Assembly (NCBI GenBank): GCA_000826855.1
Contig: JTLS01000180.1
Coordinates: forward strand, 1 to 32,602
Direction: 5' to 3'
Source of the DNA: Basidioascus undulatus
Taxonomy: Eukaryota
DNA length: 32,602 nt
Shown one piece after another: positions 6,596-18,780 of this stretch. Under the pieces are notes generated by a model. It did no database searches, was not told where the DNA came from, and worked only from the letters and a program-made list of their open reading frames with translations. Every line of letters starts with the position of its first letter. Position 1 is the first letter of the stretch. A program made the position numbers and the translations under genes.

Positions 6596-8743
6596 GATGC
6601 TTGGGACCTTCTAGGAGAGAAATAGTCATTGTAGGAGGGCAGGCGGTCGTTGGAGAAGGCCGCCGAGTCGAAGTACGGGAGGGGATGCAGCCAGCAAACG
6701 AGAGCGAGTCAGGCACGACTACGTATTGCCTTACAGCGTTTCTTTCTTCCGTTCGCGCTCGCTCCAGGCGCACTATCGAGTGATGCTGGAGTGAGCACCG
6801 GGAGGGAGCCGCTCAAAAGCGAGCCTATAAATATTGAATTGCAGCATAGCTCTCTAAGAAAGAGCAAGGCCATGTGTATGTGCGGCCGCACGAAGCCGAC
6901 ATGGAGCTGACACTGCGACATGTCCAACTGGCTGCAGCCGCAGTTGCACTGGTAACACGTTGCGACCAGTTTGCACCACCTCGTCGCTCCACCCTTTTAT
7001 AAGAGTAGCGTGTACTTTTCAAGACGGGCGCCAGGAGAGTGCGCAAGACTACGGGCTGACAAGTGGGCTCCGAAGACTGCAATAGACTAATGCATATGGA
7101 CACCCCGCTGCGCAGCTGTGTCCGCCTGCGAGACGAGCTCATCGCTCCATCTCACACCATATTAATAAATATGAAGATCAAAAGACGTTGTTCTGAAAAT
7201 TTTGGGTGCATGCGACCGAAGAGAAAGACGCCACGAAAGGCGTTCGGAGTGCGTATAGCACCGCACGGACATGCATGTTGCGGACAAGCGGCACGCCCAA
7301 GACGGCTAGCTGGGCGAGACTGGGTTTCTTTCGCAAATTGAATGGAAATCTTCATACCTTGGAGAGATAGGTTAGGTGGAATGAAGAAGTAGCTTTAAAC
7401 CTGCTTGCTAGGAAGTCGGTCCCCGCTATCCGCTAACACCGTAGGAGGACGGCGCTGAAACGAGCATGGGAGTACGTTTCGCTGAGCAAAAAGAGGGTAA
7501 AGTAGGGATGTTTGGTATTGTCTAATGATACATTTCAACCCGGAATTTCCTCAAGTCAGCATGACCTTTATGTGGGCCGGGGTGTTCCGTCTGGCGCTTC
7601 GACCGCCGCAGCGGAGCGGCCCGTGAAGGAAGTCATGTTTTTGGCTTGTTAACCGAGGGACACTGGTTTGTTATGCAAATGGAGGTAATCTTCATACACA
7701 AACACCAAGCTGGTTTTTGGAGGAGGTGCATGCGGTCCAACTGCGAGCCTGCAGCAGTATGGCTTGTGTTGCAGCATAGCATCGCGGCACACAGGATAGC
7801 GTTGCTCCTAAACTGAGTATTCATTTTACTGGAGTGCATAATGAGATCTGAAGACTACTGTTTATCAGACGCAGCTACAGACACGCGGGCTTTCAAGAAA
7901 GGACTGGAGGTCACGCTGGAAGATCGCGCGTGCTGGAGATCAGCGACCAATCAGCCAGGATAGCGCGCGTTCTATGTTGGTTTTGGCGGTATGTAACAAT
8001 ATGTATTGGGAAGTAATATGAATGGTGAATAAACTGCATAAAATGCTGAGGAAAGTCGCAGTCAGAAGATGTCGTTATCAGGACTGCCGGTGGCGTGCCA
8101 CCGTCAGCGCTGCTACACCATCTCGACTGCTGCCTTGGCTGCCTCTTCTTTCTCTTCCGTTGGATTCGAATGTGAATTTCCCTTGACTGCTCAAATAGGC
8201 ATTGGGCGCAATAGTATGACTGGGCGTTTCACAGCGGTGCTCGCAGGAATCCGCGAGACGTCCGTCGGCAGCGCTTGGCCCGCGCCTGTCCGGCCCGTTC
8301 ACGTCCGTTCAGCCGTCCTCCTGTCTCGTCTCTCGTTTCGTTCCACCAAACCACCATCATCGCACAGCAATCACAGCAGATTCTTTTCACAGCCGACACA
8401 CCCAAGCCTACGCCGAGTCGGGAAGCAGGCACACGGAAAGCGGTAGTCCTGCCGCAGAGATCGCACTGATCGACACTGGAGACGACTGGTACGCAGCCTT
8501 CCATTCGGTGGATGGCCACGGGCTCACACTTGTTCGGTCTGGAAAGAGAGCGCTTTCCTCGTCGGGCCTCTACTCTATCGCAGGCGCTTCCATTTTGTAC
8601 GAAAGCAGGCAAGCTTGAGGCACAGTCATCATCCAGTAGGTGTCGCTATCGCCACACCCGGGCGCTCCACCCGCCCAGTCATGCCCCTGACATTCTCACC
8701 TGCCGTTCCACTGTCCGTATCTGCTCAGCACTCGCATTCAACA

Positions 8744-11280
8744 ATGTCCGCCTCGTCCTCTTCCTCCGCGTTTTCCTCAGACCGATTCCCGTCCTTCCCG
8801 ATGGACATCTCCCCCGTCGGCTCAGCCGCTTCCTCAGCGTACTCGTCCATGTCCCTAGACTCCTCGCCCGACTTCGACCCCCAGGATCCGTTCAACCTCC
8901 GCAAGGAGCAGCACGAGCAGCGCAAGCGCGAGCTGGAGCACCGGGGGCACGAGGCCGAGCGGGAGGCGGAGGCCAGCGCTGAGGAAGACGGCGCCGACGA
9001 AGCCGAGGAGGAGCACCCAGATGCAGACGAGCGCTTCCACTCGACCCCCACCTCGTCCTTCGCCCCCGCCTTCCCGTTCTCCTCCCGCCGCTCAGTCTCC
9101 CCCGAGCTCGCCCCTGTCCCACTCGCGGCGCTCCCCACCCCGCCGCCCTCACACTCGCGTCCGACCCGCCTCAACCTCCCCTCGTGGCGCTCGCTCTCGC
9201 GCGACTCGGCGCGCTCCTCGTCCTCGGACGAGGACGACTGGCGCAACCGCCAGTCGACAACGATGTCGCCCCTCACCCGCCCACGACTGCACCGGAACAC
9301 TACCACTCCGCCCGTGCCGGCCCCAGGCGCAACAACCTCCTCATCGTACTTCGGGACCTTTCCCCCTGCGCCTGCCGCCACCGCTTCCCCGCCACCGCCT
9401 TCGGAGTCCTTCGAGCGCAGCATCTCCGAGATCCGCTCCATCCGTCTTCCCTCGCCTGCGCCGTCGCCCACGCCGGCACATGCCTCGGACTGGGACTCGC
9501 TCTTCGACATCCTCAACTCGCGCACGCCGTCCCCAGCGGGCCACCAGCAGCACCACCGCCGTCCAGGCGGGCTTGGTGTGAGTGGGCGCATGCGTGGGCC
9601 AACGAGGGCTGCAAACGAGTCTTGGCTCGGCATCGGGCTGTCGTCGTCGTCGGCAACGGAGCGCCGCGAGCCATCTCCCGCCCTCGCGCGCCCGCAAACC
9701 CCCCTGCACGGCACGCACCGAGCGCGCTTCGTCCCGCTCGGCCCATCCCGCTCGAGCGAATCGCCAGATCGGACGTCTTCGCGCTTCGCACCGTTCGAGC
9801 AGTCGCGGCGGGCCACCCCGCCCGCGACGCCGTTCTTCCCCTCAGCCTCATCTTCTACCGCCGCGGCCCCTTCTGCTTCCACCTCGTTTTCTTCCACTTC
9901 TTCCGCTGCGCGGCCGCAACTCCCGCCTCTCCATCTGCCCGCACCAACCCGCACGTCCCGGCCGCAACTCGCGTCCCGCCTGCCGGACCTGTTCGCAGAC
10001 GTCGAGGACGAGGACGAGGACGATCCGGCCCCGGCGCCCGCGCCCGCGAGGCAGCCGGCCATGCTCTCGGCCGGTCGCGAGGGCAGGCGCTGGGGAGACC
10101 TGATACAGCAGGAGGCGGAGGAAGACGCTCGCCGACGGCGGTTCGAGCCGCCGCCATTCGTCCTCCCTCCGCTGCTCGGCGATCTCGCGCACCACCCGCA
10201 CCGCCAGCCCGAGCCGGCTGTGAGTGTGTCGGACGACAGCGACGAGGCGGACCTCGACCTGCTCAACCTCGTTGCGTCCCGGCGGGCCGCGCGCTTCGCC
10301 TCGCTCCGCTCGCGCCATGCGGGCTCGGCGGTGCGCAGCACGCGCATCGCTGACGACGAGGACAACGACAACGACCGGGACCTCCCGTCGCACCCGCCCT
10401 CGCCGGGCGGGTCCGCAGAGCTCTTCTCGTCCCTCCTCACCTCCTCGCCGCACCGCTCCTCGTCCTTCTTCTCCTCGCTGCGACACCGCCGCACGTCCTC
10501 CTCCACCTCCCCCGCGAACCCCCCCTTCTCGCACCCGGCGCCCGCCCCGCTCTCCCCCACCCGCAGGCTCTTCCGCACCCTGCTCGGTCGGCCCTCCCAC
10601 TCCCCCAGCGCCTCCAACGCGATCGAGTTCGTCCCGTCCTACTTCGGCGGGCTCGCCTCGTACGGATACGGGTACGGCGGCGCGGTGGGCGATTACATGG
10701 ACGATGATGAGCTGGATCTGAGCTACGAGGGCCTGCTGCGGCTCAGCGAGGCGATCGGCGAGGCACGCCCGAAGGGCGTGAGCAAGGAGTGCTTGGATGG
10801 CCTTCGGAGCGTCGATTGGGGACAGTGGGTCAGGGAGCAGGGCGATACGGAGAGGAGGTGCCCCGTTTGTTTGGAGGACGTATGTCGGCCGCTTAGTGCT
10901 GGGAGGTAGGGGACTCAGGCAGCTGACGTTGGGGTATGGCGGCGCTACAGTACGCGCCTGAAGACATCCTCACTTCCCTCCCTGGGTGCGCCCACGCATT
11001 CCACAAGTCCTGCATCGAGGTGCGTTCGATCTGCCTTCCCCCTCCCCCTCTTTCCGCCCTCCGTCTTCCTCGCGTGCCCTTTTTGAACCTCACCTCCCTC
11101 TCGCAAACTCAGACTTGGCTCGGCCACTCCTCCAAGTCCTGTCCCGTCTGCCGGGCAGACGTCGAGGCCGCGTCGGCGCCCGCGCCGCGCATGCCGCACC
11201 ACCCGCCGCACGCGCACCCGCACCCGCGGACGGCTACGACGACTGCGAACTGGCGCGAGTTCGGCCCTCGCGGGCTGTGA
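8744..11280 (+). CDS. RING-H2 E3 ubiquitin ligase with long Ser/Pro-rich disordered N-terminus (exons 8744-10879, 10951-11019, 11113-11280)
   Basis: Spliced C-terminus reads LSYEGLLRLSEAIGEARPKG...CPVCLED|YAPEDILTSLPGCAHAFHKSCIE|TWLGHSSKSCPVCR, a C3H2C3 RING. Both introns are canonical GT-AG. The start ATG is in ACAATG context. Confidence 0.9.
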
Positions 11281-16070: not shown

Positions 16071-16134
16071 GGGCAAGTGGGCAATTGGGCAAGTGGGCAA
16101 TTGGGCAAGTGGGCAAGTGGGCAAGTGGGCAAGT
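16071..16134 (+). repeat. 8-bp tandem repeat (GGGCAA[G/T]T) x8
   Basis: Direct reading: GGGCAAGT GGGCAATT GGGCAAGT GGGCAATT followed by (GGGCAAGT)x4. Confidence 0.95.
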
Positions 16135-16208
16135 GGCTCATGTTGCAAAGGGGCAAGGAATGTGGAGACGCCAGTGCGGAGACCCAGAAATGAGAAACAT
16201 GGACATTA

Positions 16209-18780
16209 TTACAGAAGCATCTCCCTGCAAACAAGTAGAAGGGGTGATTAGTAATGTTTGGGGGATAAACGGGAAGAAGGAAAGAGCATGACGCAGAAGA
16301 CACTTGCCTGAGATTGCGTTGAATGATAGTACTGTGGTGCGCGCAATGAGGGCCCGGCCAGCCGGGGCAGAAAATGGTTGGTGAGGCGGCAGACGATGCA
16401 GAGGTGGGTGCGAGGGTGGAGGTGGATGCGAGAGTGGAGGTGGATGCGAGGGTGGAGGTGGATGCGAGAGTGGAGGTGGATGCGAGAGTGGAGGTGGGTG
16501 CGAGAGTGGGACGAGCAAAAGGGATGAGAGGAGCAGGACGAGGGAGGAAGGCGTCAGCCCCGCGCGCGTATACAAGGTGGCGGCAGAGTGTGGGTAATGC
16601 GACGGTGGGTTGCGACGCTCAGAGCAACCCAAGCTGAGCCAAATCGTGCCGCATGATCGTTCTTTTTTTTCGCGCCGGCACAAGAGCGACGGAGGAAGAG
16701 GGGAAGGAAGGACAGAGACATTTAGCGTAACGTTCCTTCGCGTAAAGGTCGGGCGTTGCGAGGCCTCCCCCGCCCGAAAAGACACGATTCATAGTGAGTC
16801 GGTTCGGAGAATACCGAGAGCGGGGGAGGAATGGAGAACATAGAACCGAGAGAAAACCAGAAAGGCACGCACTGCGGTGGTGGCCTTCGGAGTCAGTACG
16901 GGGCGAGACGGGAAGGGAAGGCGAAGGACGGGTTGGGAACGTACCTCTGTGACTGCAGCCATAACGACTTTGAGAAGGGCGGTGTCGGTCTGTCGCGAGG
17001 CAGCAGTAATCTGTCTTAGCCAGCACCGCAGTGGGTCGTGGGCGGACATCGACGACTCACGGCGTTCGTAACGTGGACGTAGACCTCCTTCTGCGGCGTC
17101 CGGTTCAACCGCACAAAGCGACGCTTGAAGTAGTCCCTGCCCGCCGCATAATCGCACATCGGACCTGCATGTTCGAACGAACGCATCAGCTTCGCGCTGT
17201 CGTGCGCAAATAAAAGGCTCCTCTCCTGACCATCGTAATCAGGGAAATAGTTCTTGATCGGCGAGTACTTGATCTTTTCTCGGAATATGTCGTCCTGCAC
17301 ATGACGAAAGGTGTTTGTCAGTCCGGCGAAGACGAGGAAGGGACAGGGTGCATGGCGCACCTTGTTCAGGAAGAGGATCATCGACGTCTTGACAAACCAT
17401 CTTGAATTGCAGATGCTACCGGAAATTTTGTTTGTCAAGTGAGCGCGAGCACACAGGTTATCATAAGGGTGCGGCGACGGACGAGTCGAAAAGCATGACT
17501 GTGTCAAGGAATGGTTAGCCGGCCCGTCCCCTTGGAACGTGAAAAGCAGGACGCACGAGCTTCGTGCATCTGATTAGACTCCCGGTCCTCCACCAGCACT
17601 TGATCGTAACCACCGATCGAAACCAAGAACTGCGACATCGCCTAGGGTTAGCCGTTTGCGGACCCTGCGCACACTTGCGAATGAGCTCCGCACAAGAACA
17701 GCCGTGACCTGCAAATGCAATGCCGATGAGCACATGAGAGCCTAAAGGAATTGGGATCCACGTACGCCCTCGAAACAATGGATCCACTTCTTCCGCTCTG
17801 AGCGCTGCCCGCCGACATCGAAGATGTGATACTGTTCCGCCCCATCCCCACACGTCAGCGCAACCATTGCCGCAGTCCCCGCCCCGTCCAGCCGACACAC
17901 ATCCCATTCCGAGATCCTGAACCGGGTCTCGACAATTCCGATGGACTTTGCTCGACACCGGAGGATGTCGGCGTCCGTCGCCCGGTAGTCCAGCTGCCAG
18001 AAGCGGCCGAGGTCGGAGTAGAAGTAGGGGAGATGCTCTGGAATCGCTGCCTCGTTCGCGCGCGCGTACGTCGCCTGCACGCCCGGGTCCTGCCACAAAG
18101 CCTGGAGCGCGGTGAGGTACTGAGGGGGAAAAGGCTGGTTGTCCGCCAGCTCAGGCGCTGCGGCGAGGATGGGGAGGTGTTCCTGCGAGATGATGATGAG
18201 CGCGTACGGATCGGGGAGAAGACGAGGTGGCGTGCTTACCCTGTTTTGCGGTTCGATCTCGATGTTGAAATCTTCCGCGGCATCCAGGATGAGGCGCATG
18301 CCTTGCACGATGTTAGAGAAGACGAGTTGGCGGTAAGATTCCCGTTCCGCGGGAGTGAACGCTTCTTTGTTGTAGAGGACTTTCATTTGCTGCGGCCATC
18401 AAGTAGAAACGTGAGCATCCCAGAGCCAAGCGCCCAATGATCGCGTGCGCAAGCTCATCGCCATGGAGTAGCCGATACCGCAACTCCATCATCCTGCGTC
18501 ACCTTCCGTGCCGTCCCATCCGCCTTCATGTCATCGTCTAAGATAGGAAGCGCGAGGCACACCTTCAAGACCGTGGACTTTCCCGACTCTCCAGCACCCA
18601 ACAGAAGCAGCTTGACCTGCTTCCGCATCTTGGCCTCATCCTGCCCGCCCAGCTCCCAACGTGAACGGCGGCTCCGGGTGCGGCAGATGTTGACGGGCAC
18701 AGACGCACCTGCTTGATTGTCTTCTCGATAGCGCGGGACCGCTTCGCCTCAGGCGAGTCGGTGGATGAGACGCAGCCCAT
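16209..18780 (-). CDS. heterotrimeric G-protein alpha subunit, probably fungal group II; 14 exons including microexons
   Basis: MGCVSS lipidation N-terminus; KLLLLGAGESGKST (G1); RCRAKSIGI (G2); DVGGQRSERKKWIHCFE (G3); ILFLNK|DD (G4); HVTNA|TDT (G5). The C-terminus KVVMAAVTD|TIIQRNLR|EMLL* (TAA 16211-16209) is obtained via the nested intron and a GC-AG intron. Microexons at 17708-17694 (15 nt) and 17498-17483 (16 nt). Confidence 0.93.
16225..16307 (-). other. GC-AG spliceosomal intron (last intron of the G-alpha gene)
   Basis: CAG|GCAAGT donor, ACTAAT branch-like site and TTGCAG| acceptor. Removal joins AG|G = Arg and yields NLR-EMLL*. Confidence 0.85.
16332..16945 (-). other. [D1,2] spliceosomal twin intron (stwintron): internal intron 16944-16872 interrupts the donor of the external intron (16945 plus 16871-16332)
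   Basis: Minus strand: ACA GA|G[GTACGT...ACTGAC...CCGCAG]TGCGT.....CCACAG|T ACT ATC ATT CAA. Excising the bracketed 73 nt creates donor GTGCGT. Excising that intron gives GA|T = Asp and the in-frame C-terminus. Confidence 0.8.
16401..16508 (+). repeat. 18-bp minisatellite GAGGTGG[A/G]TGCGAG[A/G]GTG x6, inside the external intron of the stwintron
   Basis: Six contiguous units start at 16401, 16419, 16437, 16455, 16473 and 16491, with two variable positions. Confidence 0.95.

Follow-up and report, generated by a model that had tools for sequence, protein, structure and literature searches.

The 32,602-nucleotide (nt) stretch of Basidioascus undulatus DNA analyzed here (contig JTLS01000180.1, in full; hereafter the window) carries on its minus strand a gene for a G-protein alpha subunit (G-alpha) of the Gpa2 type, from whose spliced product 614 nt, positions 16945-16332, are missing as an apparent GG..AG intron. 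With a probability of about 0.8, this unit is a [D1,2] stwintron, which is defined as a complete U2 intron that parts the first base of another intron's donor from the second (PMC12403724, PMC5587772). The observation of a GG..AG unit with a nested intron is confirmed, and its interpretation as a stwintron is supported, by the sequence, by assembled contigs that lack the unit and by comparison with related proteins. The contigs also revealed a second junction, 16946|16661, and with it an alternative terminal coding exon, both of which go beyond the original prediction that had been made from the letters of the window.

Anatomy of the 614-nt unit

The gene was modeled by reading the sequence and joining exons with a script. 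It runs from an ATG at 18780 to a TAA stop at 16211-16209 in 14 coding exons, and the coding sequence of the main isoform has 1059 nt and encodes 352 amino acids (aa). Two stop-free frames over its exons match Pfam family PF00503 with E-values of 5.6e-46 and 2.3e-16; the scores, 157.6 and 60.3 bits, exceed the curated cut-off of 48.8 and thus assign the product to the G-alpha family.

The last exon before the unit is exon 12, and its end is fixed by the frame. Joining the GT visible at 16944 to the acceptor at 16332 shifts the frame, and in the model the conserved tail is then lost; the frame closes only with exon 12 ending at 16946. No one-step GT-AG or GC-AG removal yields the observed mRNA, the unit opening with 5'-GGT and closing with AG-3'. 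Read on the minus strand, the sequence consists of GAG (16947-16945), GTACGT from 16944, CAG (16874-16872), TGCGT (16871-16867), a second CAG (16334-16332) and the T at 16331. Between the G at 16945 and the T at 16871 lies what has the signals of a complete intron, with a branch element ACTGAC at 16897-16892; the branch A (16893) is 21 nt before the end, and 17 nt separate the element from the CAG. Its length of 73 nt fits the range of 57-83 nt seen in 11 of the 12 other introns of the gene, the remaining one, intron 2, having 173 nt. Joining G 16945 to T 16871 rebuilds GTGCGT, a donor identical to those of introns 1 and 7, while GTACGT is also the donor of intron 5, so that these two donors serve 3 of the 12 other introns. 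Among the 8 AG dinucleotides in the unit, one, at 16872, is followed by T. Two further sites, AG|C at 16634 and 16618, were tried as nested acceptors and rejected, as the rejoined sequences (GCTTGG and GCGTCG) are not donors. Near the acceptor at 16332, the one candidate branch element is CTCAT at 16350-16346; it is non-consensus and of the CTCAY type present in several other introns of the gene. The original prediction had described this architecture (the phase conflict, the 73-nt intron with its GTACGT, ACTGAC and CAG, and a rebuilt GTGCGT donor in repeated use), and its coordinates proved exact on inspection of the sequence.

The nested arrangement is rarely produced by chance. Dinucleotide shuffles that kept the first 7 bases of the unit fixed gave, in 6 of 20,000 cases (169 of 20,000 under loose criteria), a nested intron that was 45-200 nt long, had CTRAY as an element and rebuilt GTRNGT, and over both strands of the window the full nested pattern has one occurrence, at this locus. 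No further copy of the internal intron longer than 12 nt was found in the window, and hence no sign of 'sister' propagation. A predicted RNA fold of 16960-16662 that would bring the sites together was not significant (z = -1.64; 10 of 200 shuffles fold equally).

Contig evidence for two junctions

Three sets of contigs were compared with the window. X1 and X2 are genomic; X2 was filed separately, from a different study and year, and X1 is possibly the source of the window itself and so is not independent of it. X3 was treated as complementary DNA (cDNA), since none of the modeled introns is present in its contigs; the depths given below come from the contigs of one run. Contigs are consensus objects from which rare forms are dropped, and absence cannot be shown by them.

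All 13 junctions of the 14-exon model are present in spliced X3 contigs, and a 1058-nt contig joins exons 1-11, including both micro-exons. The junction across the unit, 16946|16331, skips 614 nt, is placeable in one way only ('both' = 0) and has a depth of 54.7. This mature GG..AG junction had been predicted, as had a typical G-alpha tail, and the tail of the resulting protein (exons 13 and 14, 13 residues after a conserved Asp) does match those of homologues. A simpler account, also raised at the outset, was that the DNA has a single G at 16944-16945. X1 and X2 contigs cover all 3001 bases compared with no inserted or missing letter, and both have the GG at 16945-16944 without an indel; therefore, the two Gs are real in the DNA and do not reflect an assembly slip. 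X1 and X2 differ from the window at two substitutions, 16460 (plus strand, G>T) within an 18-nt tandem repeat and 16902 (plus strand, G>A) within the pyrimidine-rich part of the internal intron. Neither affects a splice signal; given these two differences, the window may come from a third assembly or isolate.

A second X3 junction, 16946|16661, skips 284 nt, likewise with GG..AG ends and a single placement ('both' = 0), at a depth of 33.2. It sits on a 390-nt contig that covers 16661-16307 and is unspliced from 16661 to exon 13. In both mature forms, exon 12 thus stops at 16946, a single base short of the GT that is visible. That two acceptors, the one at 16332 and the one at 16662, are joined to this same odd 5' boundary speaks for a defined donor and against a slip. 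Together, the depths of 54.7 and 33.2 come near that of the upstream exons (103.5), and the proximal form accounts for approximately 38% of both forms together, as estimated from the contig depths of this one run.

The alternative terminal exon encodes a tail of its own. Exon 12 and the proximal acceptor together read GA|A (Glu), followed by 13 codons, TIMRHDLAQLGLL, and a TGA, which gives a tail of 14 residues. For a tail profile, 120 homologues supplied 8 distinct tails of 14 residues, and all stop-free 14-mers in the six frames of the window were scored with it. The alternative tail, in its genomic reading, ranked first of 46,358 with a score of 16.97 (background mean -17.1, standard deviation 6.25), and it is one of 1,040 scored 14-mers with a stop directly after them. 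A functional second tail seems somewhat more likely than not.

Relatives and tail types

The main protein is 62% identical to the homologue P0002 and 61% identical to a protein of Mrakia frigida; the protein collection searched contained nothing more closely related. In a tree of 48 rows with Gi-like rows as the outgroup, the gene falls within a 12-row clade that has 97% support in the Shimodaira-Hasegawa-like approximate likelihood ratio test (SH-aLRT). The six named members of this clade (Mrakia, Phaffia, Botryobasidium, Ceratobasidium and two Phanerochaete species) are all Agaricomycotina, lineages having been checked for four of these genera, of which Phaffia is not one; five rows are unnamed. 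The Gpa2 clade is itself nested in a 97% clade with Ustilaginomycotina and Pucciniomycotina. The tree therefore supports, from protein sequences, a Gpa2-type G-alpha of an Agaricomycotina clade that groups apart from the Gi-like rows, in line with the basidiomycete G-alpha gene originally proposed.

The main frame and tail agree with those of homologues, most of which have 13 residues after the conserved Asp. Tails of 14 residues are found in Mrakia, Phaffia, P0034, P0036 and P0046, the last of which shares an R-H-D-L core. In other members of this clade, one type or the other is the sole tail known.

How tails are represented in databases was examined in 31 proteins: 30 from a search with the C-terminal region of P0031, plus P0125. 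The tail is complete in each of the 10 that derive from transcripts (Logan or JGI; contigs 1.3-2 kb long). The other 21 are genome-derived models from Cantharellales and Sebacinales (P0125, P0156-P0168, P0170, P0171 and P0175-P0179), and none of them reproduces the transcript-supported tail: 18 stop or read through within 3 residues of the Glu codon (17 of these within 1), one reaches the tail with two residues in place of the Asp, and two, from Ceratobasidium sp. AG-I and sp. 414, have a 14-type-like tail with conservative changes and a profile score of 10.2. Since 0 of 21 models carry the supported tail, the C-termini of G-alpha proteins in fungal databases may be systematically wrong. Two Ceratobasidium orthologue pairs, P0125/P0031 and P0161/P0155, show identities of 92.3% and 93.7% as far as the junction, and in each the genome model has the 14-type-like tail and its transcript-derived partner a 13-type tail. 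The simplest reading is that the Ceratobasidium genes also hold both tail exons, which suggests that the two-tail arrangement predates the lineage of the window. The Rhizoctonia solani model P0164 continues past the Glu codon with E-C-V-P-F, which is how the window would read after removal of the internal intron only. This is suggestive of a relative whose donor at this place is an ordinary GA|GTGYGT, and an insertion of the internal intron into a pre-existing donor in the lineage of the window would fit it in an equally suggestive way. A metagenome scan with exon 4 for DNA of relatives returned two loci (L001 and L002) that are chance matches to an 8-residue pattern and not G-alpha genes.

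The residue that follows the shared Glu varies among the 21 genome-derived models: 13 have G, 4 have E, V, A and D occur once each, and one model has no residue there. A G at this place fits a donor one base earlier than an E does. P0158 and P0161, which are 92.8% identical, may have introns one base apart or may hold further hidden GG..AG units, and Phanerochaete carnosa (G) and P. sordida (E) show the same difference after the Glu.

Discussion

The anatomy of the unit suggests a fixed order of splicing. In a first step, the strong donor GAG|GTACGT (16944) would, by intron definition, be matched with the CAG at 16874-16872, as the closest acceptor that can be used, so that 73 nt would be excised and G 16945 joined to T 16871. 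The donor GA|GTGCGT rebuilt in this way would then be spliced either to the distal acceptor at 16332, yielding the main 13-residue tail, or to the proximal acceptor at 16662, yielding a different 14-residue tail of the G-alpha type. The intermediate was not seen, and both the existence of two steps and the sequence in which they follow are inferred, from the anatomy and from what is finally removed. Since the receptor is contacted by the very end of the G-alpha C-terminus, a difference in receptor coupling between the two forms would be expected. The authors who described stwintrons apply an anatomy criterion before a test by reverse transcription PCR (PMC5587772), and experimentally they look for an intermediate that lacks the internal intron alone (PMC5639578).

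Several points weigh against the stwintron and its two products. The intermediate junction 16945|16871 is not among the joints of the X3 contigs, though contigs drop rare forms; X3 depth is 0 over 16708-16909, and no contig shows any part of 16662-16945. X3 comes from the same sample as X1 and is on record only as 'DNA?'. The comparison with relatives is one of proteins only. The unit also fails the Aspergillus-trained search pattern (PMC5587772): position +4 is a C in either donor, the external part exceeds 120 nt, and DYTRAY is absent from the neighborhood of 16332. This published search aid, GGTRWGY..DYTRAY..HAGTRWGY..DYTRAY..HAG, is tuned to A. nidulans and forms no part of the stwintron definition (PMC5587772). 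Other introns of the gene share the same traits, with four that open with GTGCG, one that opens with GTCCGT and several that carry CTCAY elements. As to the products, the alternative isoform holds a spliced intron 311 nt past its stop and might be a target of decay rather than protein-coding.

The same junctions could arise if U1 sat on GAG|GTACGT, cleavage fell one base upstream and the 614 (or 284) nt left as one lariat, in a single non-canonical GG-AG splicing reaction. The lack of an intermediate in the X3 contigs is what such a reaction would give. However, the two catalytic steps alike have a nearly invariant U at position +2 of the intron, and a one-step reaction conflicts with this; nor does it explain why a complete, typically sized intron should end at the sole AG|T of the unit, and a donor in use elsewhere in the gene be rebuilt there, which so few shuffles achieve. 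In the basidiomycete Ganoderma lingzhi, 20 GG-AG introns (0.022%) have been classed as plain non-canonical, with no mechanism named, but these may be unrecognized stwintrons, 'twin' and 'nested' occurring 0 times in that paper (PMC11590231). We consider one-step removal quite unlikely. An artefact is very improbable, whether it be an extra G from assembly that disguises an ordinary phase-2 GA|GTACGT intron or cDNA contigs that were mis-joined or came from another strain. It would draw on the possible identity of X1 with the source of the window and on the consensus nature of contigs; yet X2, from another study and year, also has the GG without an indel, X1 and X3 share a sample, 16946 is the common boundary in two separate junction contigs, and the depths of the two junctions sum to near that of the upstream exons. 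With a single G, moreover, the nested signals would be pure coincidence.

The stwintron might be real and its proximal product nonetheless be splicing noise or decay-targeted, with 16661-16619 a functionless remnant of an old exon duplication. This deserves to be taken seriously, since the proximal acceptor is a poor AAG after a run of eight As with no consensus branch element nearby, an exon junction follows the alternative stop, and the depths come from the contigs of one run. We think it the less probable account, however, of a form that makes up about 38% of the depth of both and of a peptide that ranks first in the window and has its stop at exactly the right length. It also sits poorly with the Ceratobasidium sp. 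AG-I and sp. 414 models, which have a similar proximal-type tail where near-identical transcript-derived proteins have the other, and with those members of the clade in which either tail type is the only one known.

As a [D1,2] stwintron, the unit would belong to a known class, now in a phylum for which the searched literature describes none. Stwintrons had been thought at the outset to be described mainly from ascomycetes, and the stwintron literature that was searched indeed gives cases from Ascomycota only; this is not to say that a basidiomycete case was never reported. In these sources, Basidiomycota lack the stwintron position among 52 orthologues (PMC5639578) or lack the gene concerned, rtnA (PMC6616335), a review places stwintrons in ascomycete species of several orders (PMC7385547), and the string 'basidiomyc' is absent (PMC12403724). 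Among the published [D1,2] examples from Pezizomycotina are that of lipS in Aspergillus nidulans and A. niger (PMC5639578) and the sister stwintrons of Hypoxylaceae and Xylariaceae (PMC12403724, PMC9024468). Like these, the present unit starts with 5'-GGT, would rebuild a GT donor on removal of the internal intron and appears on balance as a GG..AG intron beyond the reach of gene callers. It differs from them in its basidiomycete host, in donors (GTACGT and GTGCGT) that lie outside the Aspergillus pattern GTRWGY (PMC5587772), in an external intron of 541 nt to the distal acceptor as compared with about 57 nt in the A. niger example (PMC5639578), and in that this external intron has two acceptors in use and a coding exon inside. 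Whereas the intermediate has been cloned for Pezizomycotina cases (PMC5639578), the present unit is known from its mature junctions and its sequence; and unlike the sister stwintrons, its internal intron has no copies elsewhere in the window.

A further likeness is that to the [D5,6] stwintron of the reticulon-like gene rtnA, a donor-disrupted stwintron at a point of alternative splicing, where the external donor, once the internal intron is gone, can pair with more than one acceptor (PMC6616335). There, the internal intron lies between donor bases 5 and 6, and the alternatives are another acceptor for the internal intron and the skipping of an exon of 15-33 nt (PMC6616335); here, it would be the external intron for which one of two acceptors is chosen, and the choice exchanges the C-terminal tail of the protein. 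As in recursive splicing at ratchet points of animal genes, it would take more than one reaction of the spliceosome to remove a long stretch, and a newly formed junction would restore a 5' splice site. In recursive splicing, however, the regenerated 5' site comes whole from downstream, whereas here the donor is split, G|TGCGT, between 16945 and 16871, and an interrupted splice element is what defines a stwintron (PMC5587772).

In Agaricomycotina more widely, the Gpa2-type gene might carry two tail exons of old origin that exclude each other, the proximal for 14 residues and the distal for 13, and that serve two types of receptor coupling. The twin intron would then act as a timer: the donor that makes the choice would not exist until the nested intron had been cut out, by which time the distal acceptor, 330 nt further on, would also have been transcribed and be able to compete. 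The one-base difference in phase, seen as G or E after the same Glu codon in related models, would be the trace of a stwintron-mediated intron shift. We offer this as speculation that is rather unlikely to hold as a whole. Animal G-alpha genes with alternative C-terminal exons are known, for example the two forms of Go-alpha. As there, one G-alpha gene would here yield receptor-facing C-terminal variants through alternative 3' exons; the differences are that the gene is fungal, that only the last 13-14 residues differ and that two acceptors would serve one rebuilt donor. One broad literature search gave, among the titles and abstracts of the matches listed, nothing specific on alternative C-terminal splicing of fungal G-alpha genes, which is weak evidence of absence.

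That splice sites pair across introns, from the inside outward and in a set order, is proved by stwintrons, which also serve as models for the origin, one-base shift and loss of introns. A case in Basidiomycota that is backed by transcript contigs extends them to the sister phylum of Ascomycota. It was unexpected that one rebuilt donor should serve two acceptors and so give alternative receptor-facing tails; if both are translated, this would be a route to diversified G-protein coupling in fungi. Automatic gene models cannot call the 16946|16331 junction, and the present case suggests that more stwintrons may be hidden in the GG-AG class of basidiomycete annotations.

Other features of the gene and the window

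The features of the gene are collected in Table 1. The 3' untranslated region (3' UTR) extends at least to 15986. For the joint across the last intron there are 5 equivalent placements, of which GC..AG is the sole known splice type.

Table 1. Coordinates of the unit 16945-16332, of the parts assigned to it and of the exons of the G-alpha gene (window positions)
Feature	Position	Strand	Basis
G, first base of the split external donor	16945	-	missing from both spliced forms, present in X1/X2 DNA
Internal intron, 73 nt; donor GTACGT, acceptor CAG	16944-16872	-	sequence; separate excision inferred
TGCGT, rest of the split donor; with G 16945 forms GTGCGT	16871-16867	-	sequence
External intron to the proximal acceptor (A8-G, AG 16663-16662)	16871-16662	-	X3 junction 16946|16661
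Distal part of the external intron; kept as tail coding and 3' UTR in the alternative isoform	16661-16332	-	390-nt X3 contig
Alternative terminal exon, coding part; TGA 16621-16619	16661-16619	-	X3 junction and tail profile
18-nt tandem repeat, 6.1 copies, 94% matches, in the distal external intron	16401-16509	.	repeat search
Exon 1	18780-18709	-	model and X3 contigs
Exon 2	18640-18563	-	model and X3 contigs
Exon 3	18389-18240	-	model and X3 contigs
Exon 4	18182-17901	-	model and X3 contigs
Exon 5	17831-17766	-	model and X3 contigs
Exon 6, 15-nt micro-exon	17708-17694	-	'letters between' two joints in the 1058-nt X3 contig
Exon 7	17629-17557	-	model and X3 contigs
Exon 8, 16-nt micro-exon	17498-17483	-	'letters between' two joints in the 1058-nt X3 contig
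Exon 9	17415-17361	-	model and X3 contigs
Exon 10	17294-17231	-	model and X3 contigs
Exon 11	17164-17061	-	model and X3 contigs
Exon 12, ends in GA, first two bases of the conserved Asp codon (phase 2)	16989-16946	-	model and X3
Exon 13, 24 nt, first part of the main-isoform tail	16331-16308	-	model and X3
Last intron, of the GC-AG type, 83 nt; TACTAAT as branch element, donor GCAAGT, CAG end	16307-16225	-	X3 joint skipping 83
Exon 14, coding part, 16 nt including TAA	16224-16209	-	model and X3

Outside the G-alpha gene, 14 long frames of the window were tested, namely one of 820 aa and 13 of 193-399 aa, and none matched a known family (no Pfam family at E <= 0.01). The 820-aa stop-free frame, at 8447-10909 on the plus strand, has no homologue at E <= 1e-10. 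Within the 3' UTR of the G-alpha gene lies an 8-nt tandem repeat of 8.2 copies, at 16071-16136.

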